From Geosiphon pyriformis uo1 (lineage: Eukaryota > Fungi > Glomeromycota), in NCBI GenBank assembly GCA_016748015.1, contig JAAOMT010000197.1, positions 96,388-160,387 of the forward strand: a stretch of DNA of 64,000 bases. Direction: 5' to 3'. Under the pieces are notes generated by a model. It did not search any database, had not been told where the DNA came from, and saw only the letters and a list, made by a program, of their open reading frames with translations. Shown here in pieces: positions 7,402 through 64,000 of this stretch. Both the position numbers and the translations under genes were made by a program. Within the stretch, counting starts at the first letter, position 1, and every line of letters begins with the position of its first letter.

Positions 7402-9801
7402 TATTACAGTTCAAAAATTTAATAGGAATTATAAATAATATAAATTAGTCAATCATAAAATAGCACAGCAACAATTTATAAAAAGAAATGATTTACAAAT
7501 AACAGCAAACACTATTTTACAATAGCAGCAAGCACTATTGTACAAAAGCAGCAAGCACTATTTTACAATAGCAGCAAGCACTATTTAGAAATAATGAAAA
7601 TAGAGTATTATAAGACATTATTTTATAAAACAATAATTATATATATATACAATAGTTTTTAATGATGAAAAAAAAAACAGCTTCAAATTGAAGCAACAAA
7701 TATCTAAATAAAATCTTATTCAAAAAAAATTAATAAAAAAATAATAAATTGAATAAACATCACAATTATGAGATTAACAATAAAATTTACATATCCTTTT
7801 TAGCAAATAAAACTATCATTTCATCTCTGAACTCTTTAGAAGAATAATTCCTGATCAAAATTATTCACGTGGTTATTAATTAAATTGAAAAAGCTTTATT
7901 ATATACTTATGGAAATTATGAAAAGATTATTAATATTCTGTGTTTTTAAATTAAAGAAACACATCAGGCAATTGCAAAAATAGCCTCAGAAAAGACCCTA
8001 AACAGCAAGTAAATTTCAGATTAGCCTCTGGAAAGAAGTACACAACATACAAAGACAACTAGAATTAAAGAGAAGACTTATATTACAACATCAAGAGAAA
8101 ACCTTCAGTACATCATCATTAATATCCAACACATAAAATTGAGGAACTCACAAAAAACTGATTGCAATTAAAACAGGAGATCAACAATTAAAATATACCA
8201 AAAAAACACTTCCATAACATTTGGTGAATCCTATAAGAAAAGGAAATTAAAAAAAACTAATAATTAACAATAATTCATTGCTAAAAAGAAGGAAAACCAA
8301 AGTGGTGACAAAAACTCCTAATCTCACTGTTGTTAAATTTTGTCATGCCCTTTATTTACAATATTAAAGTGATTTTGGATTACCAAAAAAGTGTTGTCCA
8401 GCTGAAAACGCCCTTACCTATTACATTAATACCAGAATAAATTATCACATAGGAAGAAAAGAAGAACCAAACAATACAAAATATCAATTATATAGAGAAT
8501 TATCTCAATTTACTACAAAAAAAACAACAGTATTAGCTGTGACTATTGTTTAAATTCATCATGAAATTGAGCAATATGCCAACAAAAATTACCCAATATT
8601 CACAAAAAACACCAGAGAATGCATCCACAATCCAGAAATTAATCACAAAGAAAATCAGTAAAAATCATGAATTCACCCATCAATTAAAGTATTTGATAAA
8701 GCAACAATTCAACAATTAGAAAGTTTTATTGAAAAAACTAACATTACATTCCATTCAAAAAGCAGTTTACAGAATTTTCAAAGCATTTGAAAATTGTCAC
8801 AAAATATTACTGAATCCAACCATGAACATAATAACAACCAACAGTATTGAACAACTTATCAACTCACAATTTCAAGAATTACAACAACAAGTTAATAATA
8901 CAGTATTAGACTACTATAGCAACATAGAAATCAATGAAGAAATTAACTTCAATTTCGACAGAGCTCAATCTTGAAGAAGGGGATAATATTACAGTTCAAG
9001 AATTTAATAAGAATTATAAATAATATAAATTAGCCAATCATGAAATAGCACAGCAACAATTTATAAAAAAATGATTTACAAATAACAGCAAGCACTATTT
9101 TACAATAGCAGCAAGTACTATTATGCAAAAACAGCAAGCATTATTTCACAATAGCAGCAAATACTATTTAGAAATAATGGAAATAGAGTATTACAAGATG
9201 TTATTTTGTAAAACAATAAATATATATATATATAATAGTTTTTAATAATGAAAAAAAAACAGCTTTAACTCGAAGCAACAAATATTTAAATAAAATCTTA
9301 TTCAAAAAGAATTAATAAAAAAATAATAAATTGAATAAGCATCACAATTACGAGATTAACAATAAAATTTACATATCCTTTCTAATGAATAAAACTATCA
9401 TTCCATCTTTGAAACCTTTAGAAGAATAATCTCTGATCAAGATTATTCACATGGTTACTAATTAAATTGAAAAAGCTTTATTATATACTTAGGAAAATTG
9501 TAAAAAGGCCATTATTATTCTGTGTTTTTAAATTAGAGAAACACATCAAACAATTGCAAGGATAGCCTCAGAGAAGACCTCAAACAGCAGATAGATTTCA
9601 GATTAGCCTTTGAAAAGAAGTACACAACATATAAAAACAATGAGAATTAAAGAAAAGACTTATATCACAACATCAAAAGAAAACCTTCAGTATATTATCA
9701 TTAATATTTAACACATAAAATCGAGGAACTCATAAAAGACTGATTGCAATTAAAATGGGAGATTAACAATTAAAATATACCAAGAAAACACTTCTGTAAT
9801 A
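7402..9801 (+). mobile_element. Non-autonomous LTR element, family C: LTRs 7402-8219 and 8987-9801, 767-bp internal region
   Basis: Two ~815-bp direct repeats (TATTAC...TAACA/GTAATA). PBS TTTGGTGAATCC at 8220; PPT GAAGAAGGGGATAA at 8973-8986; TSD ATAC/ATAT; no pol. AGCAGCAAGCACTATT repeats in U3. Confidence 0.9.
8729..8974 (+). pseudogene. C-terminal remnant of the extra 3' ORF (ORF3) in the family C element
   Basis: AVYRIFKAF...TTNSIEQL..QFQELQQQV..FDRAQS aligns by eye with 61988-62329 (ARAIYQIHTAF...TSNQLGKI..QFEKLQTQI..FDRAQY). Confidence 0.7.
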
Positions 9802-23817: not shown

Positions 23818-24473
23818 ATGACCAAAAGCAACAATAAAAAGATGGAAATTACTAATAACATCTATTTATTCACACAACAACTATTTCAATTAATTCAACA
23901 AACAAACTTGAAAATCACAATTAACGAACAAATTATTTGGTACAAAGATAATAAAAAAAAAACCCAATATTAAATGAACAGAAAATTGGAAAACACTATA
24001 GACAAAATAATAGCAAAAGTAAAATTATCAATAAAAACATCAAAAACAGTTATATTATACCAAAAAGTAATCAAAAAAACTTGAAATTGGTGGTTATAAC
24101 AATTTCTAAAAAATTTTTGTTATTGTCACTTAGAACAAACCATAAATATTCAAAATTTGTACACTGACAAAACAAAATAGTTATTTGACACAACAATATT
24201 ATAACAACTAGAACAAATTGTGGGAAAAAACAATTTGTCTATACAGGCATAAACTATGTATTAACTATATATAGAATTTCAAGAATGACTAGCAATACTA
24301 CTTAATTCCACAATAGATACAGTTACTATCAATCAATTAGATAAAATGACTAATGCCCAATTCGAAAAATTACAAATCAAAATAACTCAAGTAATTTTCA
24401 AAAAAAAAGTTCAGAAGTTAATCAAAAAAGAAGAGTAGAAGAGATAAAAAAGCTTGATAAAGCTCAATATTAA
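23818..24473 (+). pseudogene. Extra 3' ORF (ORF3) of family A, decayed
   Basis: Homologous to 61988-62647; ends LDKAQY* just before the PPT. Confidence 0.75.
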
Positions 24474-27508: not shown

Positions 27509-28559
27509 TGTTATCAGTAGAATTTTAGCTATTAATTAGCATGAAATTATCCTTATAATTCCTATTATTAATTAGCATATATTATTATAATTTCGATTAC
27601 CACTTATTATTTAATTAAATATCAAATATTATTACTCAATCAATAATCTAATTTGTACCATAGAAATTATGATGATTAAATTACACAATATCCTGAACCA
27701 TTTAATATAGTCAAAATTCGCCGAAATTAATGAAAATTGGCCGAAATAATCAATAATTCAGTAAAATAACTTGTAGTTTGCCAAAATGTATCTTTAGTTC
27801 ACCAAAATTGTAGCAAAAAGAAAAGTGCAAGTTCAAAGACTAGTATTACAACAAGTTGTATAAAAAAAAGCTTCTCTCTTCAAGAAAATGTATCTTCTTA
27901 CAGTATCTTAACATAGTATCTCACTTTAGATATCTTAATTAGAACAAATCACTTTTTCACATCTCAAATAAAAATTAAATATTTGAAAACCAAATCCTTA
28001 AATTATTACACTTGAAATTCTTTCAAACACAACTAACATTTCGAAATTGATTAGCTACCAATTTCAGTAAACTGTTAGTGACTCCAGGCCTGAATAGAAA
28101 ACGTTTTCCTTGACAGAATTCTATTTTTTTTACATTTTTTTTATTTTTCTGTTTTTTTCTTATCATAATTATTAAAGTAACCTACAGACAAGATTCCTGT
28201 AGAAGAATTGACTTTTATAGCAAAGTAACTACACATTTTTAGTAAGCTTTTAGATGAGCAATTCTTGGAAAAGAGTTGACATTTACTACAATGTAACTAC
28301 ACAAAGTAACTGGCACAGAATTGGTTATTCCACTTATAAATCCAACAGTTTAAATTATAGAAGATAATTTGAAAATAAATTCAGTTATTGGAAATTTAAC
28401 TGCTTCCAAAAAACGTGAAAGTAGCAACAAACAAACATTAACAACATTCAAAAAAAGAGACCAAAAACCTCTGATAATATTTGGTGCTCTTCCACGGAAA
28501 TAACACAGCAACAACAAATTCAAAGTGGTAATTACACCAGATACATCAACTCTAGAGTA

Positions 28560-31500
28560 TTATTAGTCAATTTACATTATTGCAAGCAAAGATTCAACAT
28601 TCCAGACGAAATTGAAATTGTTAAGAAGACACTTTACCAGTATATTGAAAATTGCATCAACAATTATTTTCTTAGAAATTACAACATTTCAGAAATTAGA
28701 AGCAACCTTTACAATAATTTAGTGCACTATTCACAATTGGAAACTAAAGACCTTAATAGTGAAACACTTGCCACCTACTTCCAAGAACTTAATTTTAACA
28801 TTATCAAGTATTGTAAAAAAACATATTTAATACAGTCCAAATACTCTATTGATTTTGAACCAAAGACAAAAACAAGCAACAAAGACAAACAAAAACTGAA
28901 ACAACATTCAAGTACCACCCCAAATACTCCAAAAACACCAAAGACAACTACCAAATACTTACAAACACCTAAACAAGAAACCAGTGTCAAATTACTATTT
29001 TCTATTACACTATTTCCAATTTTACTTGTTTAACCACAAACACCAAATTCACTACTTAATTGTTTCTCCAGACCAGAAAATTTTCAGTCATCTAGAAATT
29101 CTACTCAACAGCAGGAACCAATATCAACCAGCACTAATCTTCTTGATTACTTACAGGAAAATGAAAGTAATCATTCAAAGAACTTAGAAAGTGAAAAAAC
29201 TGAATCAGAACCAGAAGAAATTACAGAAAACAAAGAAGAAATAACAACTGCTTACATTGCAAAGATTCCAGAATTTACTGGTAAAGATAATGATACCAGC
29301 CCTCAAGAATGGCTTGATAAAGTTCAAAAAGCAGGAGATGTAAATAGTTGGAATACAGCAAGAATGCTTAAAGCAATTCCATACTTTTTTCAAGGAACTG
29401 CAGAAGAATGGTTTGAAAATTTAGAAGAATTATTTGAAAACTGGCAAGCATTCAAAAATGCTTTCTTACAACAATTTACTGATAACAACATCTCTATTAC
29501 TCTTCACAATCACTTTCGAAATATCAAACAAGAAACATCTGAAACTGTTATGACCTATTTTGGGAGATTCAACAAACTTTTTCAACAAATTCGACAATTG
29601 AAAACCAATAAATACTATTCCAATGCCCAGATTTTGGATCAGTTTATAGCAAGATTGAAAAACAAGTTAATTAAGAAAGTTTGCCCACATGCCCCAAAAG
29701 ACTTAGCAACAGCCATTAGACATGCAAAGAACTATGAAATGGCAATAGAAGAAACAAACCATACCAAACTTGTAAATTTTGCCATTAAAGAAACCAGCTT
29801 AACAGCTAAAGAAAAAATTGACCAACTTACAAAGAAGATTGAGAACTATTTCACTAACTAGCAGCAACAACCACAAAGATATTAGCCACCACAATAATGA
29901 AACCAAACCAACTACTCATTATCATTAAATAGTCAAAACCAAAGTTGTTATTATTGTAAGATTCCAGAACATTGGAAACAAGATTGCAGAAAACTACAAA
30001 GAGACCAACAAAACAAGAGTAATCAGCATTACTTTTTAGCACAGCAATCTTATTACCAGCCTCCATTACCAGCCTATTATTCTTCAAGACCCCAACAGCA
30101 GAACAACTACTATCAGTCTGCTTCACAGTAGCAATATCAACAACCTCTACCAATCCAACAGTATTAACAGCCACTCACACAACAATACCAAGTATTTGCT
30201 CAAAGATTGGTTCAACAAAACCAATTTACACCTCAAAATCAATTTCAGAATAACAACAACAGAATCAACTCAAACAACCAATTAGTTTCCTGAAATTCTG
30301 GTCAGCAAAGACCCAATTACTATCACACTTAACCCAGTTATCTCACAATGCTTGAAGAATCGGATTTTCAATAAACTGCACTTTCTGAAAGTGAAGTTGT
30401 AGCACCAAGATCAAACTTTTTTAACAATACTATTCCATCAGCCCAAATTGCCCAAAATGCCAACCTTTCAAATATATTTCCATTCGAATTTAAAGCAAAT
30501 AAATTACCATTTTTGCTTAGCAATACAGCAGTCAATGAACAAAAAGCAATCACAGCTATATATACAGAAGCTGAAGTAGAAGGAAAACCAATTCAGTTAA
30601 TCTTAGACAGTGAATTAGCTAAAAGTATTATTACCTACCAACTGATGTAACAACTTGGAAAAAATGTTGACAGACCAGCCCAAACTGTCATTGTTACAGC
30701 AGATAATATGAAAAAGACACCAATAGGAGAAATTGACAACTTCTTATTCACTATTGATGGAATTATCATTCCAGTCAAAGTTTTAATCATAGATGCATTA
30801 CAATACCAAGCTTTTGTCAAAAATGACTGGCTTCTTAAAACCAATGCAAATTTAGATTGAAAAACCCAGAAATTGAAGATTTCATATCAAAGACAATACA
30901 CTAGAGTACCTGCCACTTGTGGTACTTTTAATAAAAAATCTGAAAAAGCTCCAGTATTCGAATTTGAAAAAGAGAAAAAACTACCAATCATTGAAACTTT
31001 TATGGCTTTTGGATCAACATTCAGTTGGGCCAAGGAAACAGAACAAGAAATCTTTGAGGAGACCAGAAGATAGAATGTAGTTAGATATTCTACACCAGAA
31101 CCACAGAAACAACTACTCTACATCCCACTTAAATACAAAGATTGCAACAAAAAACTTTTATTAATAAGAACATGTATTTCTTCAAAAGAGAAATATGAAA
31201 CTCACACCTGCTACTTTTGCAAAGCATGTCATAGAGAACAATTTGAATATCCCAAAAGAAGTGAAAAATAGGACAACACTCTTTGCCTTACATGTGGAGA
31301 TATGTTATCAGAAGAATATAACTGGATTAATGTTGTAATAAGAGAAGAAATATGTAATCAAATCTGCTAATATGCTCTATCAATCTCGGAAAAAGTCAAA
31401 AGAGGAACACTTTTTGATGCAGCATACAACAGTGCTCTTAACAAACTTTATTACTATCTTCATAATACTGAAATGATCTTTGACTTAGCAATGGCTTTAA

Positions 31501-34500
31501 TTAATAAAGCCACACAAAAAGATGTCTGCCAAATAAAAAAAACAAAATACATTGAGTATACAATAAAATTAGCTGGATTTAACTATGAAGATGAAGTGGA
31601 AACATACCACCAAATTGCAAGTTATACTTATTTGACTCAAAAAGCTCAAATTCAACAATTAAAGCAGATAAACATTCAATTGTGTAAAGAATACATCATG
31701 TTTTGTGATAACAAATGGTGTCCAGAATGCTATGCACTTAGCATCCCCTTATCTAACAAAAATAACCAGGAAAAAATAAAGTTTGGAGAACTTAAGCCAG
31801 AAGAAAAAATTGCAACAACTTCAATTTATCTTACTAAAAACCAACTTGCTATACAATTCAAATACTTTAACAACAATGGAAAAGAAATAAAACCAGAAAA
31901 AGCCCACAAAATTGATGCAGGATATGACCTAAGATATTCTGACAAAGACACTTTGATTCTCCAACCAAAATCTTTAACCAAAATTAATCTCAAAATTGCT
32001 CTTGAAATATTACTAAGAACAATAGTTCAAATTGCTTCCCAATTATTATTGGCAAGCAAAGGAATCAATATTAGAGAAGGAGTCATAGATGCAGAATATA
32101 CTAGAGACATTACTATCATGTTACAAAATGAAACAGACAAACCATTCAGAATTGAACATGTTGAAAAAATTGTCTAAGCAATTTACATACTCTTAATCAA
32201 CATTTCAGATTTACAATCAGTTAACAACAGAAAACAATTGGGAAAAAGTGAAAAAAGAATACAAGATTTTGGTTCAACTAGATGATTTACAGTTTCAGTA
32301 AACATAGCTCTCAATGCACAGAATAAATCTTACCAGATTTTTCAACTTTTCCAACCAATTACTATTTCATCTTTTGAAGAACATCACAAAATTTACACTT
32401 GCTCAAAACCTACCACTATCCAACAAATCTTTGTATCTAATGAACAAATTTGTTTAAAGCATGAAATCTCAATTCCAAACGTTTATATTCTCAAAGGAAT
32501 GAAAAAATTTTGAGTTACATTTTACAACCCAATAATTATCTTATTGTCTTATTAAACAAATCAGAGATTAGAATCATATACAGTTATATCTTTCAAAATG
32601 AAAACCCTTAAATTGTCTCTAATTTTATTGAAATTGTAAGACATACTCTATTTTCAAATTCAAATATTATCTCTACTACTGAAAGCTACCATTTTTTGAA
32701 AGAAAAACTCTCTTAAATCAATATGGATCCCTTAAAACCCCAACAACAAAAACAATTGAAACAGCTAATAGCTGAATTTGCAGATATATTTGCAAAAGAC
32801 AACAATGACCTAAAAAAAACTGACATTGTTCAACATTAGATCCATACAGGAAATGTTCCACTAAAATGACAACAAGCCTATTGAGTTTCACTTGCTAGCT
32901 ACCAATTTATTAGAGAAGAGATCCAAAGAATGTTCAATAGCAGATTGATTCAACCATCAAAAAGTCTTTGGGCCTTATCAGTAGTTTTTGTTAAAAAAAA
33001 AAACGAAAAAATCAGATTTTGTGTAGATTATTGTTAGCTCAACAGCATGAGAATTGAAAATGTTTATCCACTTCTAAGAATTGACGACATACTAGATACT
33101 CTAAGAAAAGCCAAGTTTTTTTCAACTTTAGACTTGAAAAGTAAATACTGGCAAGTCAAAATGAACCCAAAAGATCGACCCAAAACAGCATTTACCACCC
33201 AAGGAAAAAATTATGAGTTCAATGTTATGTCTTTTGGATTTTGCAATACACCAGCAACATTCTAACAACTCATAGATATTGTATATGAAAGACTTTTATG
33301 GCAATTAGTAGTTGTCTATCTTGATAATACTGATGTGTACTTATCAAGTTTTAAGGCTCATCTCATCCACCTGTGAGAAGTTTTTTAATGATTATGAAAA
33401 GCAGGATTGAAATTGAACATTAAGAAGTGTCACTTTGGAAAAACAAGTTTAATCTTTCTTGAACATATTGTCAGCAAAAATAAAGTCAAACCAAATTCTG
33501 AAACAATTAGTGTTGTCAAAAACTTTCAAACTCCCAAAAATACCACAGAACTACAAGGATTTGTAGGATTAGCCTCTTACTATCAAAAATTCATTAAAAA
33601 ATTCTCAGAAATTACCAAACCACTCAATTATCTTACCAACAAAAACGTGTCATATCAATAGACTAAAGAACAGTAGAAAGTTTTTGAAACCCTCAAAACA
33701 AAATTGACAACAGCCTCAATTCTTGCTTATCCAGACTTTAACAAACAGTTTTAACTAGCTACTAATGTTTTACACATAGTATTTGGTATTATGCTATCAC
33801 AATTAGATGAAAATGACCAGGAGGAAGTCATTGCTTATGCTAGTAAAACACTCAAGCCTACAGAACTCAAATATGGCTCAACTGAATTAGAAACTGCTGC
33901 AGTTATTTGGGCTCTTAAACACTTTTAACAATACCTGAAAAATGAAAAATAATTTGACATCATAATTAACAATATTGGTTTTAAATGGCTCAATAAAAAG
34001 AAAACTAAACAAAGTGCCAAACAGTCTTAATGGAATAATTTCTTAGCAGACTACAAATATATTGTACACCACAAACCAGGAAAACTATACATTAATGTTG
34101 ATAGCCTCTTAAGAATGAGACAAAATTAACACCACCAATAAATCTACTACAACTTACTACTACCAACAAAACAACAAAACAACAATAGATTCAAGAAATT
34201 ACAACAACCTTAAAAACTATTTGGAGACTTTTATCATACCAGAAAATTGGTCTCCAAGTAAAAAACATCGATTACAACACCAATTCAAACAATATTTCAT
34301 ATATTATAACAAAATCTATTACAAAAATTGCAAAAACTCAAACCAACCACTCAGATTAGTACAGGAAAATAAAAAAGAAACAATCCTATACAACATGTAC
34401 ACAGATCCATCTTCAGCACACTTAAGAAGAGATGAAACACTTTAAAGAACTCTTGAATATTATTTTTGGCCTCACATGCAAAAAAACATTTAACAATATA

Positions 34501-35570
34501 TAGAATCTTGTGATAGTTGTCAAAGAAAAGAAAAAACTTGTCTCACAGAACCTTTAAATCCAATCAAAGTTGGACAACTTTTTGACAGAGTTGGAATTGA
34601 TTTAGTCGGACCATTATCTATTACAACCCAAGAAAATCGTTATATTAGAGTTGCAGTAGATTATCTTACCAAATGACCTGAAGTTAGAGCCATCCAAAAA
34701 ACAGATGCAAAATTAGTAGCAAATTTTATTTATGAAGACATTATTTGTAGACATAGATGCCCAATTGAACTTTTATCTGATCAAGGAACATATTTTGTAA
34801 ACAACTTGATACAATAAATTTGTGAACAATTCAATATTAAAAGACCACTATTATTACTTTATTACCCTCAAACAAATGGATTTGTAGAACATTTCAACAG
34901 AATATTATGTAAATCTTTAGCCAAAGTCTCAACAGATTTTGAGCAGAAATGGGATATCTTTATTCCATCAGTGTTACTAGCATACAGAACACTAAAACAA
35001 GATACTATAAAACACATACTATTTAATCTTACTTATGGAAAGACAGCAACATTACCAATTAATTTCACAGTGAAAACATACCCAGTACAACCAACCAATA
35101 AAGAAAACTTTCAAAAAACACTCCAAAGAAAAGTCTACACTCTTCTTAGTACATTGGAAGGAAAAAGACATATAGCAGCCACTTATATTGAACACTCTCA
35201 AGTCCAACAAAAAGAAAGACATGACAACAAATTGCCACCAGTTACCAACGAATTTAAAGTGGAAAATAAAGTTTTCTTACACAGAACTAAGACTGAAAAA
35301 CAATGGAGTAAAAAATTTGAACATAAATGGAATAGACCATTTTATATTTACGAAATTCTAGGCAATAGATCATACAAGTTAAAACTTGATAACAAAATAT
35401 TAGCAAAAATTGCACATAAAGATTGATTGAAACACTATTATTTCAAAAACAATCCTGAACCATTAATTTCACAAATTGGTACACATTTCTCTTTAATTAG
35501 TCCTGAAAATATTCCCCGAAATTTAGAACCAATAATTATAATAAAACAACAACAAAACTTGAACACTTAA
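28560..35570 (+). pseudogene. gag (CCHC ~29945) - PR (~30590) - Cys-rich insert - dUTPase (~31890-32290) - RT (YLDN 33317) - RH (stop 34127); integrase ~34185-35570
   Basis: Fragments 29364-29861 (gag), 31473-32177 (DAGYDL, GVIDAEY), 33047-33661 (RT), 34221-34445 and 34971-35426 (IN). Confidence 0.9.
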
Positions 35571-35747
35571 TTTAAAAATATTTTTTATAATAATCTTTTT
35601 AAAAAAAAAAACACAAAAACAAAAACAAAAATAGTAAAATAATTACAAGAAACATTCAAACCCAAAAACAAATAAAAACTCTATACACAAAAATAATTTT
35701 CTTTATTCTTTTTTCAAATTTTCTTTATTAATTAATCAATTTTTATC

Positions 35748-36455
35748 ATGATTATTTCCCGAAATATTCAACAAATATCCCAAAAATTAATGTTAGTCTT
35801 GAAAACACTTCTTAACTTATCCATAATGATTAATGAAAGTCAAATTAATTACACTCAGAAAGAAAGCACAACACCAGTAGTAAATAATTCTCAGAATTAT
35901 TACTCCTATAGAAGAAAAACAAAAAGTTACTCTGGAATTCAATTACCAAAACTTTTGAAGCAAACACTAAAAGAAAACTTTTTATTTGCTCTTATTGACA
36001 TTCCACCAAATGCCACAATCCAACAAAAACTTCTACTATTTTTCAATAAAGAGAACAATGAACATACTCTTATATATAGATATTTTCATATTGGAAAAAC
36101 ACTTTATGAACAGAAACTGAAACTTGAAGCAACCAACATTATTCCTGAGACTATACAAAAACAAATTCACAATATATTCAAGACAGCAGCTGAATCAACA
36201 AACACTTATTACAAACTTAGAGCAGCTTTTAGACTCTATGAGTTATTCAATACTTGTAAAAACATCCTACAAAATCTAATACTTCATCCAATAAAGATTC
36301 AATATATTGAAAAGCTCACAGAACTGAAATTTCAACAATTTTCAGACCAAATCACTTCAATTATTTTGGACCACTATCTTAATATTACAGATAATGCTTG
36401 GACTTTGATGGAGCTCAGTTTTAAGAAGAAAATTATTTTACCAGTAAAATTTTAG
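35748..36455 (+). CDS. Extra 3' ORF (ORF3) of family B, 235 aa, uninterrupted, function unknown; ends inside the 3' LTR
   Basis: ATG to TAG open while gag-pol is riddled with stops; near-identical protein at 46309-47016 (-). Confidence 0.7.
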   Translation: MIISRNIQQISQKLMLVLKTLLNLSIMINESQINYTQKESTTPVVNNSQNYYSYRRKTKSYSGIQLPKLLKQTLKENFLFALIDIPPNATIQQKLLLFFNKENNEHTLIYRYFHIGKTLYEQKLKLEATNIIPETIQKQIHNIFKTAAESTNTYYKLRAAFRLYELFNTCKNILQNLILHPIKIQYIEKLTELKFQQFSDQITSIILDHYLNITDNAWTLMELSFKKKIILPVKF

Positions 36456-37880
36456 CTATTAATTAGCATAAAATTACCCTCATAATTCCTATTATTAATT
36501 AGCATATATTATTATTATTTTGATTACCACTTATTATTTAATTAAATTATCAAATATCATTACTCAATCAATAATCCGATTTGTATAATAGAAATTAAGA
36601 TGATTAAATTACACAATACCCTAAACCATTTAATATAGTCAAAATTCGCCGAAATTAATGAAAATTGGCCGAAATAATCAATAATTCAGTAAAATAACTT
36701 GTAGTTTACCAAAATGTATTTTTAGTTTACCAAAATTATAGCAAAGAGAAAAGTGCAAGTTCAAAGATTAGCATTACAACAAGTTGTATAAAAGAAAAGC
36801 TTCTCTTTTCAAGAAAATGTATCTTCTCACAGTATCTTAACATAGTATCTCACTTTAGATATCTTAATTAGAACAAATTATCTTTTACACATTCAAATAA
36901 AAATTAAATATTTGAAAACCAAATCCTTAAATTATTACACTTGAAATTCTTTCAAACACAACTAACATTTCGAAATTGATTAGCTACCAATTTCAATAAA
37001 CTGTTAGTAATTCCAGGCCTGAATAGAAAACGTTTCTCTTGACAGAATTCTATTTCTTTTACATTTCTTTTATTTTTTCGTTCTTTTCTTATTATAATTA
37101 TTAAGGTAGCCTACAGACAAAATTCCTGTAGAAGAGTTGACTTTTACAGCAAAATAACTACACATTTTTAGTGAGCTTCCAGATGAGCAATTCCTTGAAA
37201 AGAGTTGACATTTACTACAACATAACTACACAAACTAACTGGCATGGAATTGGCCATTCTATTTATAAGCCCAGCAGTTTAAATTATAGAAGATAATTTG
37301 AAGATAAATTCAGTTATTAGAGGTTTAACTGCTTCCAGAAAACATGAAAGTAGCAACAGACAAACATTAACAACATTCAAGAAAAGAGACCAAAAACCTC
37401 TGATAACAATGTTTTTCTAGATATAATATTGTTTTTTATCTTATCAACTACTAAAACATCTGAATTAACATAGTTACTTTTCTCTGCAATTATATTTTTC
37501 ATGTTTTTTATATCCAACAGGCCACTTATACTGTTCACTTTACTACTTCAAGACTTCACAATCCTATTACTAGTACTATTGATATTAGTCAGGCCTAAAA
37601 AATTAGCAGACAAATTAACTATACTGATACTGGCTTCAGGTTTTTTTGGCTTTTTATAGGACATACTATAAAAATAAATACTATTAACCCACTTCTTTTT
37701 AATATTAGATCAGATCTTCAATTCAGCAGGACCAGAACCAAAACTATCAGCAATAAAGCTCATCAGTTTTATAACCACAAACAAAAATGTGTCTAAAGAA
37801 ATAACTAGAGAAGTAAAAAAGAAGAAAATAAGAAAAATTATTTATTTGGCAGTGTTTTGCTCTTATTGTGACCAGAAAAT

Positions 37881-40095: not shown

Positions 40096-41264
40096 CTACG
40101 CATTGGGAGATTTGTTTAGTTCGATATTGGTAGAGGCATCAGAAACTTTTTCCAATCGTTTTTTCCTTTTTTGTCGAAATCTTTCCTGTGCTTCTGCACC
40201 GCTCTTCAGTTTTTTGAGTTTTTTCTGATTCTCGATTATTGATGTCTCAGCCTGTTGAATCTTAAAATAAAGATCTTTGGCAACTTCTTCATCAATTGTC
40301 AGCTGAACAAGTTGTTTGTATTCTTCCACTTTGTTTTTAGCGTGTTCAATATCTTCGAGAGCTTGTTTTTGTGCTACCGCATTCTTAGAGGTTGGCATTG
40401 AAGCCATGATCGGTGTTTGACTGGTCGGTGAGGAAGAAATTATAGGTTCAGCAGGTTGGAGTGGAACGCTTACATTAACTAACACGATAAGTAGTTCATT
40501 AGTGGAGTTGATTGGGTCGGTTAGACCAACTCAAATGCATTACCTGTTTCGATCAAAAAGTTTTGCTGATTGGGTACTTCAAATGGTTCCAACATAGCTG
40601 AAACGTTAGATGTTTCATCCATTCGCTTCCTTCTCTTTTGCCGAAATCTTTCTTGAGCTTGTGCCCCACTTCTCAATCTTTTAAGTTTTTTCTGGTTCTC
40701 AATGATAGATGCCTCGGCCTGTTGAAGTTTTAGATAAAGATCTTTGACGAGATCTTCATCCGTTGTTAAACTAACCAGCTGCTTGTATTCTTCCACCCTT
40801 CTTTTGGCATCTTCAATGTCTTGAAGAGCTTGTTTTTGGGCAGCAGCGTTTTTTGATGTTGGCGTTGAAGGCGAATGGGAGGATTGAGTAATTTGATTCG
40901 TTGCCGAAGGAGTTATACTTACCACATGATCAATTGGGATGTTAAAACTCCCCGCCGCAGTCAGTGGCTGATTATCCGACTTTATAATGTCGATTAAATT
41001 CGTCACTTGAGAGCTGTTTACTTGAATATTAAGCAAAGTGTTTATTTCCTCATAAATCTTCTCTTTCTCTTGGTTTCGAACCAATATCCAAGCGCGGTTA
41101 GCGTCATCCAAGACTTTTTGTTTTGCAGGTCTCCATGTTTTTGCATTAACCATTTCTGCATAAGCAAAAGCATTGGCATAATAGTGATATAGGTTTGTGG
41201 GTTTCGGATAGAGATATGTTTTACTGTAGTTTGGTATTTCCAGAAAGGTATTTTGCTGCGACAT
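40096..41264 (-). CDS. Two-exon gene (41264-40544, 40478-40096; 367 aa): helical N-terminal domain plus two coiled-coil/basic repeats; putative nucleic-acid-binding protein
   Basis: 65-bp GT-AG intron 40479-40543 with ACTAAT branch joins the ORFs in frame (IET-V-NVSVP). Repeat PTSKNA.AQKQAL.DIE...KKLK.L.SGA.AQERFRQKR occurs twice. CpG retained. Confidence 0.8.
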
Positions 41265-41762
41265 ACTCCAACCTTTAAAATAATTAACTTACTATACACC
41301 AAATAATTAAAAAGCGGGAATTTTATCTTATTATGAGCTCTTACAACGCTCAAATAGCCCGGATGTTGAGAAGCCGAACAGAGCGGGGAGAAACTACGGC
41401 GCTAGACGAAGATTGTTTGTCAAATGTTTTTTTTGAAATGTAGTACATTTGCTACTCCGGGCAGCCTTTAGGTCAATTACGTCATATTCATCCAGGATAA
41501 AAATTTCCATTTTTAGAGCTATTTGCGAATGTTGCAGATGATCTACAGGAAAAATGTTTGAAAATTCATAAATTCTCCGGTGTCTCAAGTGTCGTGCTTA
41601 ATTTTTACTGCGTGGGAATTATATAAAAAGATACAAAATAATTGGTAAAACCACCTGCGGCATTGGAAACTGCGGTAAATTAGATTATAATTCCTTTCCG
41701 AGAAAAAAAGTATATAAAGAGGATGTCTTATTAAGGGAGATTCGTCTTTTGAAAATAAAAAA
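41265..41762. promoter_or_regulatory. Probable bidirectional promoter region
   Basis: ~500 bp between divergent ATGs; CpG-rich compared with the TE flanks. Confidence 0.55.
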
Positions 41763-43170
41763 ATGACGTCTTCAGAAGCATCCAAAAATCAATTTCCGCA
41801 TGATAGTCAACCTGATGATGATAATTTAGAAATTCCATTTACTAAACCTTCAGCTTGGAATGATCACGTAAAATATAATTCAATAGAAAACAGCACTAAT
41901 TCGAAACGCATAGAGCAGTATAAACACGAGAATTTAGTGAATCTTTGTGGTAATGTCCATTTTGAAATTTTGGATTTGAGAGCTTTAAATGATTATTTAA
42001 TAAAAAATCTGATCAAATTTTCGAAATTAAAAGAATGGGTCGTATCAGAAAAGGTTAATTTTTTGAAATTCCTGATGCCTTAATTGCTCCGAAAGGATTT
42101 TGGTATTAAAATCATCCATTTTTATTTTCCAATCCAGATTCATGGGTCAAACTTTTCATTCATAACTAATGGAACTGAAATTAAATGTGCCAGGAGAATG
42201 GATATCCTTGATGATAATGAATCCTTTTTTGGGTTTCAAGCAATTAAAGCAAAACTTCACGCTAATATATTTAAATTATGGAATGTAATGAAAATAAAGA
42301 ACCTCATTCGTGGTGAGAAGGTTATTGTCTATGGTGAAATTTTTGGCGGATTATACAGGCACCCAGATGTGAAACCTATCAAAGGTGCTTCGATTACTCA
42401 ATTCGGTATTGAATACTGTCCTCAGAACGAGTTTTTAGCTTTTGATGTATTCGATGGAACAGATATCCTGGATTTTGACGTTATGACCCAAGTTTTAGAA
42501 GACGCAGGGTTGCCTTTCCTTAAACCAATGGCTAGAGGTTCTTTTGATGAAGTCTTTAATTATAATCCCGATTTTATTACCACTATTCCCACTCTTTTTG
42601 GTCTACCACCCTTGCCCAATGTTAAAAATAGCAGAGCTGAAGGAGGTACAAACAAAATTAGACAAACTTTGTCCTCACATTAAAAACATAGAAATCTTAC
42701 TTTCAATTTGTATAGTGATTATTAGACCGGTTCTTCATCTTCGTACCCAGACCGGTTCACGGGTCATACTCAAAATCAAAACAAAGGACTTCGTGGAAAG
42801 AGTTAGAATGAAAAAGAAGGAATATATCAAGGAAACGAAAGAGATGCCAAAAAAGGCCTTCGAGATCTTCTATTCTCATCTGGAGACTTTTATCAACAAA
42901 AATCGCTTGACATCTGCTATTTCAAAAGAAGGTGCTTTGAATGACAGAAATATGAAAAAAATGGCAGAGCTAGTCTACCAAGATGCCTTGGAAGATCTTT
43001 TGAAAGAAGACGGGTGGCCTGAAAAATATGATGAGCTAAATGAGAAGACAAAAGGAATCATTGAGAAAAGAGCTATATCTGCTTCGACAAAAGTGATCCG
43101 AGAGTACTTGAATGAATTAGAAATTTTGAAAACATCAGGCCTATTGGAAGATTTAGATTTATCAGATTAA
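41763..43170 (+). CDS. RNA ligase 2 (T4 Rnl2/REL family), 4 exons: 41763-41949, 42034-42053, 42138-42645, 42716-43170; 389 aa
   Basis: Spliced motif I EWVVSEKIHGSNF, motif III VYGEIFGG, IIIa AFDV, IV AEGVIIRP, V ILKIK. Rnl2 C-domain INKNRLTSAISK...VYQDALED. Three GT-AG introns (84, 84, 70 bp) give 1170 nt in frame. Confidence 0.9.
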
Positions 43171-45354: not shown

Positions 45355-46308
45355 TGTTACCGAAGGTTTTTTGGTCTCTTTTCTTGAATGTTGTTAATGT
45401 CTGTTTGTTGCTAATTTCACGTTTTCTGGAAGCAGTTAAACCTCCAATAACTGAATTTATCTTCAAATTATCTTCTATAATTTGAATTGCTGGGCTTATC
45501 AGTGGAATGGCCAATTCCGTGCCAGTTGCTTTGTGTAGTTACGTTGTAGTAAACGTCAACTCTTTCCCAGGAATTGTTCATCTGGAAGCTCACTAAAAAT
45601 GTGTAGTTACTTTGCTGTGAAAGTCAACTCTTCTACAAGAATCTCGTCTGTAGGCTACCCTAATAATTATGATAAGAAAAGAAAAGAAAAATAAAAGAAA
45701 TGTAAAAGAAATAGAATTGTGTCAAGGGAAACGTTTTCTATTCAGGCCTGGAGTTACTAACAGATTACTGAAATTGGTAGCTAATCAATTTCAAAATGTT
45801 AGTTGTGTTGAGGGAATTTCAAGTGTAATAATCAAAGGATTTGGTTTTCGAATATTTAATTTTTATTTGAGATGTGTAAAAGGTGATTTGTTCTAATTAA
45901 GATATCTAAAGTAAGATACTATAATAAGATACTATGAGAAGATACATTTTCTTGAAGAGAGAAGCTCTTCTTTTATACAACTTGTTGTAGTACTAGTCTT
46001 TGAACTTGCACTTTTCTCTTTGCTACAATTTTGGTGAACTAAAGATACATTTCGGCAAACTACAAGTTATTTCACTGAACTATTGATTATTTCGGCCAAT
46101 TTTCATTAATTTCGGCGAATTTTGACTATGTTAAATGGTTCAGGGTATTGTGTAATTTGATCATCATAATTTCTATGGTACAAATCGGATTATTGATTGA
46201 GTAATGATATTTGATAATTTGATTAAATAATAAGTGATAATCGAAATGATAATAATATATGCTAATTAATAATAGGAATTATGAGGGTAATTTCATGCTA
46301 ATTAATAG

Positions 46309-47016
46309 CTAAAATTCTACTGGTAACATAATCTCCTCCTCGAGACTGAGCTCCATCGAAGTCCAAGCACTATCTGTGATGTTAAGATAGTGGTCCAAAA
46401 TAATTGAAGTGATCTGGTCTGAAAATTGTTGAAATTTCAGTTCTGTGAGTTTGCCAATGTATTGAATTTTCATTGGTTGCAGTATTGGATTTTGTAGGAC
46501 ATTTTCGCAAGTGTTGAACAAATCATAGAGTCTAAAAGCTGCTTTAAGTTTGTAGCGAGTATTTGTTGGTCCAGCTGCTGTCTTGAATTCTTTGTGAATT
46601 TGTTTTTGTATAGCTTCAGGAGTGATGTGTGTTGCTTCAAGTTCCAGTTTTCGTTCATAAAGTGTTTTTCCAATGTGAAAATATTTATAGATAAGAGTAT
46701 GTTCATTGTTCTGTTCATTAAGAAATAGTAGAAGTTTTTGTTGGATTGTGGCATTTGGTGGAATGTTAATAGGAGCAAATAAAAGGTTTTCTTTTAGTGC
46801 TTGCTTCAAAAGTTCTGGTAATTAAATTCCAGAGTGATCTCTTGTTTTTCTTCTATAAAGATGATAATTCTGAGAATTATTTACTACTGGGATTGTGGTT
46901 TCTTTCTAAATGTAATTAATTTGACTTCCATTAATCATTATGGATAAATCAGGAAGTGTTTTCAAGACTAACATTAATTTTTGGGATATTTGTTGAATAT
47001 TTCGGGAAATAATCAT
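46309..47016 (-). pseudogene. ORF3 of family B copy 2; stop at ~46908, C-terminal 166 aa open
   Basis: Matches 35748-36455. Confidence 0.75.
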
Positions 47017-47176
47017 GATAAAATGTCTAATTAATAACAAAATTTGAAAAAAAATAAAGAAAATTATTTTTGGATATAGAATTTTTATTTGTTTTTAGGT
47101 TTGAATGTTTCTTGTAATTTTACTATTTTTGTTTTATGTTTTGTGTATTTAAAGAAGTTTTGTAAAAATGTTAAAT

Positions 47177-54240: not shown

Positions 54241-55347
54241 AATACTCTAGAGTTGTTGTGTCTGGTGTGGTCACCACTTTGAAATTGTTATTGCTGTGTT
54301 ATTTCTGTAGAAGAGCACCAAATGTTACTGAAGGTTTTTTGGTCTTTTTTCTTAAATGTTGTTAATGTTTGTTTGTTGCTAATTTTATGTTTTCTGGAAG
54401 CAGTTAAACCTTTAATAACTGAATTTATCTTCAAATTATTTTCTATAATTTGAACTGCTAGGCTTATTAGTGGAATGGCCAATTCCGTGCCAGTTGCTTT
54501 GTGTAGTTACATTGTAGTAAATGTCAACTCTTTTCCAAAAATTGCTCATCTGAAAGCTCACTAAAAATGTGTAGTTACTTTGCTGTGAAAGTCAACTCTT
54601 TTACAGGAATTTTGTCTGTAGGCTACCCTAATAATTATGATAAGAAAAAAAAAAAAAAATAAAAAAAATGTAAAAAAATAGAATTGTGTCAAGGGAAACG
54701 TTTTCTATTCAGGCCTAGAGTTATTAACAGATTACTGAAATTGGTAGCTAATTAATTTCAAAATGTTAGTTGTGTTGAGGGAATTTCAAGTGTAATAATC
54801 AAAGGATTTGGTTTTCGAATATTTAATTTTTATTTGAGATGTGTAAAAGGTGATTTGTTTCAATTAAGATATCTAAAGTAAGATACTATGTTAAGATGCT
54901 ATGAGAAGATGAGAAAATAAATTTTCTTGAAGAGAAAAGCTCTTTTTTTATACAACTTGTTGTAGTACTATTCTTTGAACTTGCACTTTTCCCTTTGCTA
55001 TAATTTGGGTAAACTAAAGATATATTTCAGCAAACTACAAGTTATTTCACTGAACTATTGATTATTTCGGCCAATTTTCATTAATTTCGGCGAATTTTGA
55101 CTATGTTAAATGGTTCAGAGTATTGTATAATTTGATTATCTTAATTTCTAAGATACAAATTGGATTATTGATTGAGTAATGATATTTGATAATTTGATTA
55201 AATAATAAGTGATAATCAAAATAATAATAATATATGCTAATTAATAATAGGAATTATGAATGTAATTTCATGCTAATTAATAGTTAAAATTCTACTGGTA
55301 ACATTGTCAAAATTGAGAAATTATTGTCATCTAAAATGAGGCTTATC

Positions 55348-56431: not shown

Positions 56432-59400
56432 TATTACAGGTAATTATTTGGTTTTAAAGCAAATAACAAACCTATAACTTAGTGCTCAATTGATATAATA
56501 ATGTTAATATCTGAAGGTTTTCGTAATCTGAAGATTTTGGTTGGTCTAAAGGTTTTGTTGTGGAGTTTTTTGTATAATGGACAGAGATTCAATTGTTGTC
56601 TTCTTAGTAGCTTCTTGGAATTACAATTCTGTTAAATTTCTTTTTCAGCATAGTGGCTGGTAATCTGGCAGAGATGCTCTTCTGGTAAGCTCTCCTTAAA
56701 TTCTCAATATTATACTCTTCCTTTGAGGTCTTTTACCAGGCTATCCTTGATGTCAATAATTCAGTGCTTTCTTTTTTTAGTCAATTAGTAAAACAAAAAG
56801 AAATAATAAAAAAAGAAAATAAAAAAAAAATAAAGAAATAAGCCAAGACAATGAGTATTAGTATTCTATTAATAGTTATGATCAAGAGCTATTGTTCTAG
56901 TGTGATTAAGTATTAATTACTATCAACATGAAGTGTTGATAGTAGAGAGTAGATTAAGATAATGAATAATTATTTATTGATATTTGTAAATAAAAGATTG
57001 CTTAAATTAAATCTAAACTAAAAGGTCTTCCTTTTTTTCTTCTAATGCTATCACTATATATACATAATTGATGTTTTACAAGATTGCTTATATTCTTGAG
57101 CAATATGCTATGATTTTTTAAGCAATGTGTCCTAATTTTTTAACATTACTCCACATTGCTGAGCAATGTGCTCATGTGTTAAATACTACTTTTTTATTGG
57201 TCTACTATTTTCTATATCTGTTTTTCTTTTTATGAGTAACATTATCTCTTCCTTTTAATATTGAGCTTCATCAAAATTCTCATTTTGAATTATGTCAAAT
57301 ACTTTTTTTCAAGTAGCATCTGTTCCACTCTACTCTTTATTTTTTCAATTTGTGAGTTGTTTATTCTTCCTCATTGGTTGATGGTTATTGTTTCCATGTT
57401 AAAGTATAACAATACTTCTGAGTAGTTTTGGAATATAGTATATAGTTGATAAATAGTCTTGATGTGTAGTGTCAAATTTGTTTTCTTTCCAATAATATCT
57501 TCAATGTTCCAGATTATCTTTTGATTGAAGATTCTCTTGGATTTGTCAAGATATAACTTCTGAATATCTATTTTTTGTCCCAATTGATAGTAGCAGTATG
57601 ATATTAGAAATTAGTCTATCTATTGGTTTTAATTTTCTTTTGCCAGTTTTTCTGTTGGAACTATAATGGTTATCTTTCCAAAAGTGTTCTTTATTTTTTC
57701 TACTATTTTATCTGACCAGTTTATTGACTGTTTCTGTGGTCACTGGTATAGTGTGTTTTTCCCTTTTTGTTTGGTGTTTTAATAACAGATTGTTTGGTTG
57801 TTAATGATAATTTCCATGTTTACTTGCTGTTAACTTAAAGCCTAAAACAATTGTTAAGCTAAAGTGTGAATATGGTCTGGTATTTCCATTTTTTTTTGGT
57901 GCTTTTGTCACATATATTGTGTCTTTATATACTTTTTTGGTTGTTTAATTTAACATGTTTGGTTCAATAATTATGATTGGTTTCAGGTCTCATGAAATCT
58001 CATTTGGTTAGACTAGTATTCTCTGTGCTTCTAATTGTGGAATATTACTAGTGAATGGTGACATTATATGATAATATGGTTTTATTCAATTACTATATAC
58101 TGTTTTGGCTAAGATTTTGTTGTTTTATCTTAATTTATAAGCTCTATTTCCTAGAATTTTTTCTATGTGAAATGGTCCGTCTCATTTGGGATCAAATTTT
58201 CCACTCTATTGTTTTTCCACTTTAATATAATATAGAAATACTTTGTCTCCAATCTTAAATTTAACTAGTTTATCTGTTAGTTGGTTATCATGTCTCTTTT
58301 TTTGTTTCTCTTGTGACTTTTAAATATTATCAGCTGCTTTTTGCCATTTGTTTTCCAGTGTCTTCATTAAGTCATATGTTCTTTTCAACAATGTTCTTTG
58401 AAAATTTTCTTCTGTTATTGGTTCTGTTGGATATGTTCTGACTTCTATCTTAACTGGTAAGATTGCTGTTCTACTATATACTAATTCAAATAGTGTTGTT
58501 TGTATAGTGTCTTGTTTCATTGTCCAATAAGTGAATAATATTGATAATATAAACAAATCTTATTCATCCTGGTTTTCTTGACTGATTTTGGCTATTGCTT
58601 TAAACAGTGTTTTGTTGAACCTTTCAACTAACCCATTTGTTTATGGATGATATGATGATGATAATAGTCTTTTCATCTTAAATCTTTGACTTAATTCTGT
58701 CAATATTCTATTTACAAAGTGAATTCTTTGATTTGATAATAGTTTTTTTGGACATCCGTGTTGACAGATCAAATCTTGATGAACAAATTCAGCAACAGAT
58801 TCTGCATTTGCTCTTTAAATGGATTTTGCTTTTGGCCATTTTGTGAGATAATTTATGGCTATTGCAATATATCTGTTTCCTCTGCTGGTTATTATTAATG
58901 GTTCAACTAAGTCAATTCCAATGTGATCAAATAGTTGTCTTATTTTAATTGGTTTTAATGGCTTACTTGGCCTTGTTTCTCCTTTTTTCTGACAAGTATT
59001 ACAATTTTAAACATATTGAATAGTGTCTGAATATATTAATGGCCAATAGTATCTTTTTCTGATTCTTTCCATAGTTGTTTCTTTGTAAAAATGTCCTGCT
59101 ATTGGATCTGAGTATATATTAAATAATATTGTTTTTTTCTTTAGTTTTGTAACTATTCTGGTTAGTTGATCTGGATTTCTTTTGTTTTTCTGGTAAAGTA
59201 TATTTTGATGGTTAATAAAATATTTTGATTGCTGTTTTATGTTGTTTTGTTCCTTTTGAGATAATTTTTCTTTGAACAATTGGGTATTTATATAATATTA
59301 GAGTGGTTGATATTTTTGTATATTCATCTTTTTGTTATATTTTTGGGTTGAAATGTTTTTAGATTTGTCTCATTTGTAACAGACCATCAGCATTTTTGTT

Positions 59401-61126: not shown

Positions 61127-64000
61127 TGTTACAGTAATTATTTGGGGTTTCAAGTCAAATAACAAATCTGTAACTTGGTGCTCAAAAGCTATTTGCATTG
61201 ATGATAAACTGAAGGTTTTGGGATTTGAAGGTTTTTCCAATGAGTTTTTTGTATAATGGACAGAGATTCAATAGTTGTTTTATCTGTAGCTTTCCAGACT
61301 CGCAAGTCTGTCAATTCTTTTCTCGGCTTGGTGGCTGGCAATCTTCTGGTAAGTAATCCATATCTTCTGTACATGTCCTACCCACTTGCAGGGGTCTTTT
61401 ACCAGGCAATTCTTGACATCAGTAATCAGCACTTTTTAATCAATTGGTTAGTACACAATAACAAAATCACAGAAAATAAAGAAAATAACAAAATAAAGAA
61501 ATATAAAGAAATAAGCCAAGGTGTTTGGTAGACTAGTATTCTGTCAATAGCCATGATCAAGAGCTATTGGTCCAGTGTGGTTAAGTATTAATTACTATCA
61601 ACATGAAGTGTTGATAGTGGATAGTGGATTGAGATATGAAATAATTATTTATTTGATGATTTTGTTTCTAGGCTAAGGATTTTGTGGTATCGATTCTGTC
61701 TTTTCTGTTTCTAACACTACTGTTATATATACATATTTGAGATTCCTCAATTCCTCAATTCTTCACGATGAGAATCCTGGAATTCTTGGAATTTTGTAAT
61801 TCCTTTAAGAGGAATCCTGGAATTCTGGAATCCTGTGATTCCTTGTCGGGGAATCTTGAAATTCCTGGAATCTTGCAATTTCTAAGAAGAATCCTGGAAT
61901 TCCATATTTACTACATCTACTTCTGATTGGCTAATAATTATACTAATATATTTTCTCTATTTCTATAAGTAACATTATTTCCTCCTTTTAATATTGAGCT
62001 CTGTCAAAATCCAACTCATTTAATTCCCTTTCTTGAAGTATTTCCTGGATTTTGTTTTCAAGAATTACTTGTGTTATTTGGGTCTGTAATTTTTCAAATT
62101 GAGTCTTGGTGATCTTTCCCAATTGATTACTGGTAACTCTATTTATTGTTTTGTTGAGTAATATTTCTGGTCTATCCTGAAATGCTGTGTGTATTTGGTA
62201 TATGGCTCGGGCCTGTGTGGATAAGTTGTTTTTTCCCACAAAATGTTTTAATTGTTGTAGTATTTTTTTGTCGAATAATTGCTTTGTTTTATCCATATAT
62301 AGATTCTGGATATTTATATGTTGTCCCAAGTAAAAATAACAATAGTTTCGTGGAAATTATTGTATCCACTAATTCCAAGTTTCTTTAGTCAACTCTTGAT
62401 ATAGTGACTTTTTTGTCAACTCTTTTATTGCTAATTTTACTTTTGCAATGATTTTGTCTACTGTATTTTCAGTTTTCTTCTGTGTTCTGAGTTGCAATGT
62501 CTTTCTAGTATCTTGATATCAAATGGTTTGTTGATTGATTGTAATCTCCATTTCCTGGTGTTGAATTAATTGAAAGAGTTGTTGTGCTAGTGAGTGAATG
62601 TTGTCTGTAATTTCTATTTTTCTGATATTTCCTGTCATGTCTATCATGTCTTTATATATTTTTTTTATGGATCAATTTAATGTGTTGTTGTTGATAATCA
62701 CGATTGGTTTCAGATCTCATGGAGTTTCATCTGGTTGGACTAGTATTCTCTGTACTCCTAATTGTGGAATATTACTGATAGATGGTAGTGTAATATTGTG
62801 GTATGGTTTCAGTCGATCTCTATGTGCTGCTTTGGTTAAAATTTTGTTATCCAGTCTTAATTTGTAAGCACCATTCCCTAGAATTTCTTCTATGTAAAAT
62901 GGTCCATTCCATTTGGGGTCAAATTTTCTACTCCATTGTTTTTCTGCTTTGGTATGATGTAAGAGTACTTTGTCTCCAATTTGAAATTCAACTGGTTTGT
63001 TTAGTAGTTGACTATTGTGTTTTTTTTTCTGTTTTTCTTTGTGACTTTTGAATATTATCAGCTGCTCTTTTTTGTTTATTTTCCAATGTTTCTATTAAGT
63101 CATATGTTTTTCTCAACAATGTTTCTTGAAAATTTTTTTCTGTTATTGGTTCAGCTAGATAGGTATTAATTTCTCTCTCTACTGGTAATGTTGCTGTTCT
63201 ACCATATACTAATTCAAATGGTGTTGCTTGTGTAGTATCTTGCTTCATTGTCCAATAAGCAAATAATACTGATGGTATGAACAAATCTCATTTGTCCTGG
63301 TTTTCTTGGCTGAGTTTGGCAATTGCTTCACACAATGTTCTGTTGAATCTTTTGACTAATTCATTGGTTTGTGGATGGTATGGTGATGATAGTGGTCTCT
63401 TAATTCCGAATCTTTGGCTCAATTCTGTTAATGTTCTGTTCACAAAATGAGTTCCTTGGTCTGATAATAATTTCTTTGGACATCCATGTCAACAAATTAA
63501 ATCTTGATAAATGAATTCGGCAATGGATTCTGCATCTGCTCTTTGAATTGCTTTCGCCTCTGGCCATTTAGTGAGATAATTCATGGCTACTGTTATATAT
63601 CTGTTTCCTCTGCTGGTGATTATTAATGGTCTGACTAAATCAATTCCAATCTGGTTGAATGGTTGTCCTACTTTGATTAGTCTTAATGGTTCACTGGGTC
63701 TTGTTCCTTTTTTTTGCTAACAAGCATCACAATTTTGAATATATTGAATGATATCTGGGTACATTGATGGCCAATAGTATCTCTTTCTGGTTCTTTCTAT
63801 GGTTGCTTTTTTGTAAAAATGTCCTGCTGTTGAATTTGAGTGCATGTTGAATAATATTGTCTCTTTTTCTGGCTCTGTAATTACTCTGGTTGGCTGATCT
63901 GAATTCCTTCTATTTTTCCAATAAAGTATATTTTGGTAAGTGATAAAATATTTTGATTGTTGTTTGATACTCTTTCATTCCATTTGAGATAAATTCTCCT
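61127..64000 (-). mobile_element. 3' part of a Gypsy family A copy (3' LTR 61127-61974, ORF3, integrase), nested in the previous element and running off the window
   Basis: TGTTAC/GTAACA ends, GGAATTCC array, PPT AAAAGGAGGAAATAA, integrase 63012-63284 and onward. Confidence 0.9.
61988..62647 (-). pseudogene. ORF3 of family A; C-terminal 113 aa open
   Basis: Ends ELDFDRAQY*; homologous to 23818-24473 and 57255-57913. Confidence 0.75.

Follow-up and report, generated by a model that had tools for sequence, protein, structure and literature searches.

The locus lies in B1, a Ty3/Gypsy LTR retrotransposon (27509-37408) within a 64,000-nucleotide stretch of Geosiphon pyriformis DNA (the window) that is AT-rich, has a CpG observed/expected ratio of 0.23 and is a pile of decayed retroelements. 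The LTRs of B1, about 970 bp long and 92.6% identical to each other, have TG...CA ends. The primer-binding site TGGTGCTC directly follows the 5' LTR, a polypurine tract (PPT) precedes the 3' LTR, and a 4-bp target duplication, ATGT, flanks the element on both sides (27505-27508/37409-37412). Between the LTRs we found the Ty3/Gypsy domain order of gag, protease (PR), reverse transcriptase (RT), RNase H (RH) and integrase (IN). Downstream of integrase, on the same strand, runs an open ATG-to-stop frame, ORF3, whose last codons cross the PPT and reach 20 nt into the 3' LTR (Table 1). When the region was shuffled, 0 of 5000 shuffles gave a frame as long. Between B1 and the related element B2, the ORF3 frame has no shared stop and the other two frames have many. 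The initial annotation called ORF3 the longest open frame in B1; this holds only from ATG to stop, and then by one codon (235 versus 234), whereas from stop to stop ORF3 ranks third (239 versus 275 and 268).

Several other features of the window deserve mention. A dUTPase domain lies between protease and RT at 31371-32177 (Pfam E 2e-9) and again at 19879-20412 and 55381-55734, with cysteine-rich motifs such as CxxxWCxxC upstream of these domains. The B1 gag (28480-29200, +) has a long N-terminal extension of more than 200 aa without a Pfam match. Decayed, mutually related elements at 1-6000 (+) and about 11770-15370 (-) are likely non-LTR retroelements, and a weak RNase H match falls among them at 4417-4923. 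Amid the repeats, a gene at 42084-43170 (+) encodes RNA ligase domains of the T4 Rnl2 type, with above-cut-off Pfam matches to PF09414 and PF18043; it is possibly a phage- or bacteria-like gene within a fungal genome. Two ORFs at 40096-41288 (-), without clear family, hold an internally repeated coiled-coil-like segment (40151-40403 versus 40618-40870, 76% at the DNA level).

Table 1. Features of the ORF3-bearing elements. Positions are those of the window, except for L001, a metagenome contig numbered on its own.
Feature	Position	Strand	Remarks
B1 5' LTR	27509..28479	+	begins TGTTA
B1 gag-protease-dUTPase-RT-RNase H	28480..34129	+	decayed; ends at TAA 34127-34129
B1 integrase	34185..35570	+	separate ORF; SH3-type tail
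B1 integrase-ORF3 spacer	35571..35747	+	177 nt, AT-rich; several B1/B2 indels
B1 ORF3	35748..36455	+	235 aa, ATG to stop, open
B1 AGCTCA motif and PPT	36411..36432	+	
B1 3' LTR	36436..37408	+	ends TAACA
B2 ORF3	46309..47016	-	element 45355-55303; 80% identical to B1; 2 stops
A1 ORF3	23818..24473	+	10 stops in 210 codons
A2 ORF3	57255..57904	-	stops and frameshift
A3 ORF3	61988..62647	-	219 codons; 3 stops
C ORF3, 3' remnant	8680..8974	+	frameshifted; pol-less element
RNase H-integrase junction, B1	34127-34185		
RNase H-integrase junction, A1	about 22330-22400		
RNase H-integrase junction, A2	about 59400-59330		
RNase H-integrase junction, L001	772-799		

The claim that every element carries a sense ORF or remnant downstream of integrase proved correct: about 220-235 codons follow all five integrase matches, and a remnant lies in element C. 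In tblastn searches with B1 ORF3, the closely similar B2 copy was joined by C (E 2e-10), A3 (2e-8), A2 (4e-6) and A1 (5e-4). A family HMM recovered the same six loci, with E-values from 1e-20 to 4e-103, and beyond them a single weak match (E 0.08), and the residue motif originally proposed as shared agrees with the conserved alignment columns. Most of the copies are broken, those of B2, A3 and A1 by stops and that of A2 by a frameshift. Element C (7398-9794) is a short non-autonomous derivative in which LTRs at 7398-8212 and 8983-9794 (815 bp) surround 770 bp. An ORF3 remnant is indeed kept there, but it comprises only the last ~95 codons, frameshifted and adjoining the PPT, so that its survival there does not speak for a function.

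AGCTCA followed by a PPT was found at six of six element ends (8961, 24460, 36411, 46353, 57268 and 62001) and at about 3090 in L001, with a search pattern derived from these same copies. In family B, ORF3 reads this stretch in a frame other than that used in A and C. Because the motif is kept at all ends although the ORF3 frame over it differs, it is likely a cis signal.

In these elements integrase is not in one frame with RT-RNase H, as is usual in Ty3/Gypsy. A TAA stands after the last RNase H motif, in the same or a neighbouring codon, in all five junctions examined (B1, B2, A1, A2 and L001), which cover three independent lineages. Integrase begins 24-57 nt further on (5/5 copies), past an A/C-rich spacer, with ATG as start codon in A1, A2 and L001; B1 and B2 have ATA there. 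Its frame relative to RNase H varies among copies and four spacers have a second stop, which argues against both read-through and random decay. The layout that follows from these junctions is gag-PR-dUTPase-RT-RH / IN / ORF3, in three cistrons. Comparison of B1 with B2, and the placement of two 1-bp indels, suggests that gag to RNase H was once one long frame. An earlier TGA in the integrase frame, common to A1-A3 and aligned with an Arg in B, may reflect decay. Near the integrase-ORF3 junction, A1-A3 conserve the motif TATATAAAGAC. In B2 a pyrimidine tract and AG lie immediately 5' of the ORF3 ATG; that AG is absent from B1 and L001.

Looking beyond the window, 184 of 387 candidates passed in a search for ORF3 homologues, and all of the at least 120 listed are G. 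pyriformis hypothetical proteins, as are the 17 homologues (from 154 candidates) found with family A. Searching 1.84 billion representatives with a profile yielded 105 matches, 27 of known source (24 from G. pyriformis, 3 metagenome proteins). We discarded one match as likely false, a protein of 2898 aa aligned in 8 short stretches (P0225). With metagenome members as query, 8 proteins were found among 3394 candidates. Intact ORF3 homologues occur in metagenome records, and L001 (the one contig recovered from 595 pattern matches) gives the order RT-RNase H, stop, integrase (one internal stop), a 316-nt spacer holding two short ORFs, an intact 230-aa ORF3, PPT and the start of an LTR. Between the window elements and L001, identity is 30% in ORF3 and 45-58% in integrase. 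Nine subfamily representatives are alignable over their full length and share 14-45% core identity (70% between the two B groups). In the ORF3 tree, which carries long-branch warnings, A, A2, C and a further family stand apart from B and the metagenome forms. Viral contigs searched with ORF3, integrase and the PPT motif gave no match, and phages gave a single match at E 0.4. Several fetched gene models fuse ORF3 pieces with integrase-tail, gag or dUTPase sequence and many terminate in a PPT/LTR-encoded tail, as expected for a gene inside elements.

To compare substitution rates we adopted LWL85/YN00, because Nei-Gojobori, which we set aside, gave dN/dS below 1 also in the LTR and in the wrong frames. 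In frame, the three family-A pairs gave dN/dS of 0.34-0.52 (LWL85 values 0.38, 0.52 and 0.40), which are upper bounds since they include neutral decay; off frame, LWL85 values were 1.25-3.26. Differences in these pairs are concentrated at third positions (p 1e-4 to 3e-3), and integrase of the same elements gave LWL85 values of 0.71 and 0.46. A ratio near 1, which would speak against an accessory gene, was thus not seen in family A. Between B1 and B2 there is no signal of selection (0.80 in frame, 0.66 and 1.38 off frame, 0.62-1.27 in the LTR control). The suspicion that ORF3 stays open for want of mutable codons was not borne out: at the rate of the window's pol, 4.2-5.2 stops would be expected per copy, and 0 (B1), 2 (B2), 3 (A3) and 10 (A1) were seen. 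We do not take the open frame of B1 as a sign of present-day selection. The probability of 0 stops is about 0.01 per copy, but that figure uses a rough stop rate, and among six copies B1 is the best. In the annotated B copies, mismatch is 0.078-0.087 at columns conserved across families versus 0.116-0.122 elsewhere (p 0.14 and 0.018). Taken together, the substitution patterns indicate that ORF3 was under past purifying selection while the elements were active and decayed after insertion, like pol. Selection in active elements followed by decay marks ORF3 as a gene of the element rather than of the host.

The predicted protein does not resemble env. The absence of a transmembrane stretch was confirmed, as judged by hydropathy, in 11 proteins with a highest 19-residue value of 0.57-1.43 and 1-3 Cys. 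ORF3 had no env, chromodomain or integrase-tail match in Pfam, NCBIfam, PHROG or PDB-sequence searches (best E in the last, 0.079 and 1.2). It is also physically separate from integrase, past a stop and a spacer; the SH3 match falls in integrase, which has no chromodomain match in Pfam. Two recurrent matches were taken as chance: NCBIfam FtsQ, with 21 of the 48 members and a best E of 6.7e-5, and phrog_23683, with 12 of 48 (E 0.002). The members concerned are nearly all or all of family B, and neither match extends to the first member, P0168. The closterovirus coat protein PF01785, a weak lead, reached an Atlas score of 0.91 with 138-139 shared features, under the guide of 170, and is absent from the Pfam results. 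With none of three contrary findings made (a match of the kinds just named, neutral evolution in family A, openness from few mutable codons), the view of ORF3 as an uncharacterised non-env accessory protein is supported. ORF3 is a true third gene of a fungal Ty3/Gypsy lineage, soluble and non-env.

For structure prediction, intact natural homologues stood in for a restored consensus ORF3. The AlphaFold model from a 48-sequence alignment (mean pLDDT 80.9, pTM 0.66) predicts an N-terminal alpha-beta-beta module at residues 7-38 (helix 7-20 and two strands), a flexible, disordered basic linker at 39-51, a helix at 52-66 and a helical core at 82-219 (pLDDT about 90) that includes a basic two-helix segment. 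Foldseek with this model gave nothing at E<=0.001 against PDB and viral sets; a family-B-only model was poor (pLDDT 44.5) and had no Foldseek match. In VIA-align the best Z was 4.7, none reaching 5 among 48,161 chains or among 988. Net charge is +2 to +8 in segment 126-160 in 12/12 proteins and +2 to +5 in the linker in 10 of the 11 proteins having one; the remaining segments are mostly acidic or close to neutral, and the intact metagenome proteins are acidic overall (pI 5.2-5.9). The conserved columns are hydrophobic or are G108, N145 and R155, so ORF3 is likely not an enzyme. Among D, E, H, C, K, R and S, only R155, the sole near-invariant charged residue (8/9 subfamilies), reaches 7/9 subfamilies, and no DEDDy- or GDSL-type catalytic set was found.

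In helix order, an 'IG' motif and the basic helix pair, ORF3 is similar to the ParB-type families HTH_ParB (PF17762), DUF1016_N (PF17761) and DUF3102 (PF11300), to which homology is putative, with profile probabilities of 0.3-7%. Against the ORF3 profile, DUF1016_N scored 7% in a 60-column match with the expected register, reduced to 1.9% and 13 columns with rebuilt larger profiles. DUF3102 scored 3.2%, also in the expected register, and HTH_ParB 0.3%, with 5 of 60 shuffles equally good; a NusB control gave 0.09% and a single YhcG sequence 0.1%. Block shuffles were beaten in 60/60 cases by DUF1016_N and in 59/60 by DUF3102, in tests uncorrected for our choice of these families by their motifs. 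Against each other, the three families score 39-91%. Spo0J (Z 4.2, rmsd 5.3, 93 aligned) and KorB (Z 3.6, rmsd 4.4, 89 aligned) each align with the whole core of the ORF3 model, within the tool's noise, and other folds likewise span the core. We regard the likeness to ParB-type helix-turn-helix (HTH) proteins as a weak lead, not an assignment. As an aside, DUF1016_N, and also DUF3102, resemble HTH domains of the ParB type, since the profiles match at 91%; the DUF1016_N model also matches a ParB gene and the HTH_ParB model a DUF1016 fragment (L076, L080). A literature search on DUF1016 and ParB returned ParB papers only.

Extra sense ORFs between pol and the 3' LTR are well known, as in the env-like aORFs of plants (PMC7264820) and the ORF3s of bdelloids (PMC5408684). 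As reported there, these resemble the window ORF3 in place, strand, retention in most copies and lineage specificity. They encode either env-like proteins with membrane helices or DEDDy or GDSL enzymes, whereas the ORF3 described here is fungal and soluble and has no catalytic set or family match. The TRP28 ORFs of Retand, whose function is not known, are likewise conserved, post-pol and proposed DNA-binding regulators, but are antisense and from plants (PMC11963269); no homology with ORF3 was detected in Pfam scans. Fungal Gypsy elements such as PosPlaTy3-5 share the dUTPase between PR and RT; the available text describes them as having one or two ORFs (gag, pol) and does not describe a separate integrase ORF, although in a figure legend some element is labelled with an 'add. 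ORF' whose function is unknown (PMC2864245). The fungal elements with extra ORFs in Additional file 1 of that paper may bear on the novelty of ORF3. Ginger1 resembles the window elements in a Gypsy-like integrase that is its own protein, a 4-bp CG-centred target duplication and TGTNR ends, but Ginger1 elements are described as DNA transposons with inverted repeats, whereas here the free integrase lies within an LTR retroelement (PMC2836005). Titles and abstracts in the literature searched describe neither this ORF3 family nor a Gypsy element whose integrase is encoded on its own, a feature that the initial annotation had missed. Both appear new within that literature.

What might ORF3 do? We place first, tentatively, a nucleic-acid-binding regulator, a trans-activator of the element's own expression. 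The soluble helical product would bind the element's own DNA, perhaps at the LTR or an internal promoter, and raise transcription in a genome that is depleted in CpG and likely methylated. Helices 126-160, the basic pair, would work as a helix-turn-helix that binds nucleic acid, the basic linker could be a nuclear import signal, and ORF3 and integrase might be made from subgenomic RNAs or via re-initiation. Foamy-virus Tas is an analogue for such a trans-activator. VANC, reported as a transposon anti-silencing protein (PMC13547354), is another, and DNA-binding or regulatory roles have been proposed for other post-pol ORFs (PMC11963269, PMC7264820). The basic patch cannot tell DNA from RNA binding, and the basic segments would suit RNA equally well. 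Next in our ranking, and possible though rather unlikely, is that ORF3 acts on RNA, exporting or stabilising unspliced genomic RNA like CERV, or promoting re-initiation in the manner of TAV. Both CERV of Cer1 (PMC10309623) and caulimovirus TAV/P6 (PMC5902531) are described as non-env accessory proteins enabling element RNA expression. Export of genomic RNA reportedly requires CERV, and TAV serves polycistronic RNA, driving re-initiation past long ORFs, helped where the stop and start codons lie near each other. A three-cistron element whose A/C-rich spacers are short (24-57 nt before integrase; 24 nt from the stop closing the integrase frame to ORF3 in A3) fits such a role, and the split integrase may need re-initiation aid. 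Counter to this, the likeness to CERV and TAV is one of analogy alone, and ORF3 has no sequence match to any described family. Integrase and ORF3 are also 177 nt apart in B1, and in L001 the 316-nt gap contains two short ORFs ahead of ORF3; such spacers suit a separate ORF3 transcript better than re-initiation.

Below this we rank a partner of integrase that brings it into particles or steers it to CpG sites in place of a chromodomain, which we consider unlikely. Being unfused to Gag-Pol, integrase would need another route into the particle, and its tail is SH3-type without a chromodomain match. The duplications ATGT/ATGT (B1) and ACAA/ACGA (B2; 55307-55304/45354-45351) are consistent with decayed CpG-centred sites. 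However, Ginger1 transposases, with a Gypsy-like integrase, are reported to pick CCGG/CCGT (PMC2836005), so that a CpG preference need not involve ORF3, and ORF3 diverges much faster than integrase, as the comparison with L001 shows. Rapid divergence around a conserved fold would suit a factor directed at the host, one that binds methylation or RNAi proteins as a counter-defence or helps particles move between the nuclei of coenocytic hyphae; Arabidopsis transposon accessory proteins are reported to have more predicted host contacts than core enzymes (PMC13547354). We find this role, last of the four, doubtful, and for spread in particular ORF3 lacks a membrane anchor. The idea of a host gene captured by the elements, or of a passive, non-functional frame, is largely refuted and very improbable. 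In its favour, copies decay after insertion, conserved columns are only modestly less mutated, and genomic context covers seven loci, six in the window and L001. Arguing against it are purifying selection, a constant position across subfamilies of such low identity, gene models that join ORF3 to element sequence and the failure of the homologue and profile searches to recognise a stand-alone host homologue.

These elements could belong to a three-cistron, 'complex' glomeromycotinan Gypsy lineage in which a ParB-type HTH regulator of bacterial or phage origin would govern the expression or delivery of free integrase, enabling multiplication in methylated repeats, with the integrase a living intermediate towards stand-alone integrases of the Ginger1/GIN type. 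We offer this broader picture as speculation that is unlikely to hold as a whole.

Non-env accessory genes of LTR retrotransposons have so far come chiefly from plants and animals, mostly without function. ORF3 adds a family from a fungus which, given its intact members in nature and a confidently modelled structure, is suited to binding and reporter assays, and at least 137 G. pyriformis 'hypothetical proteins' are now flagged as retroelement products. The conserved stop that frees integrase from Pol is a departure from the usual Gypsy layout and poses the question of how integrase is produced and packaged. LTR elements are reported to make up 41.2% of the G. pyriformis genome sequence (PMC11952901). 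Given this share and the retention of ORF3 across all these Gypsy families, ORF3 may help to explain the expansion of LTR elements in G. pyriformis.
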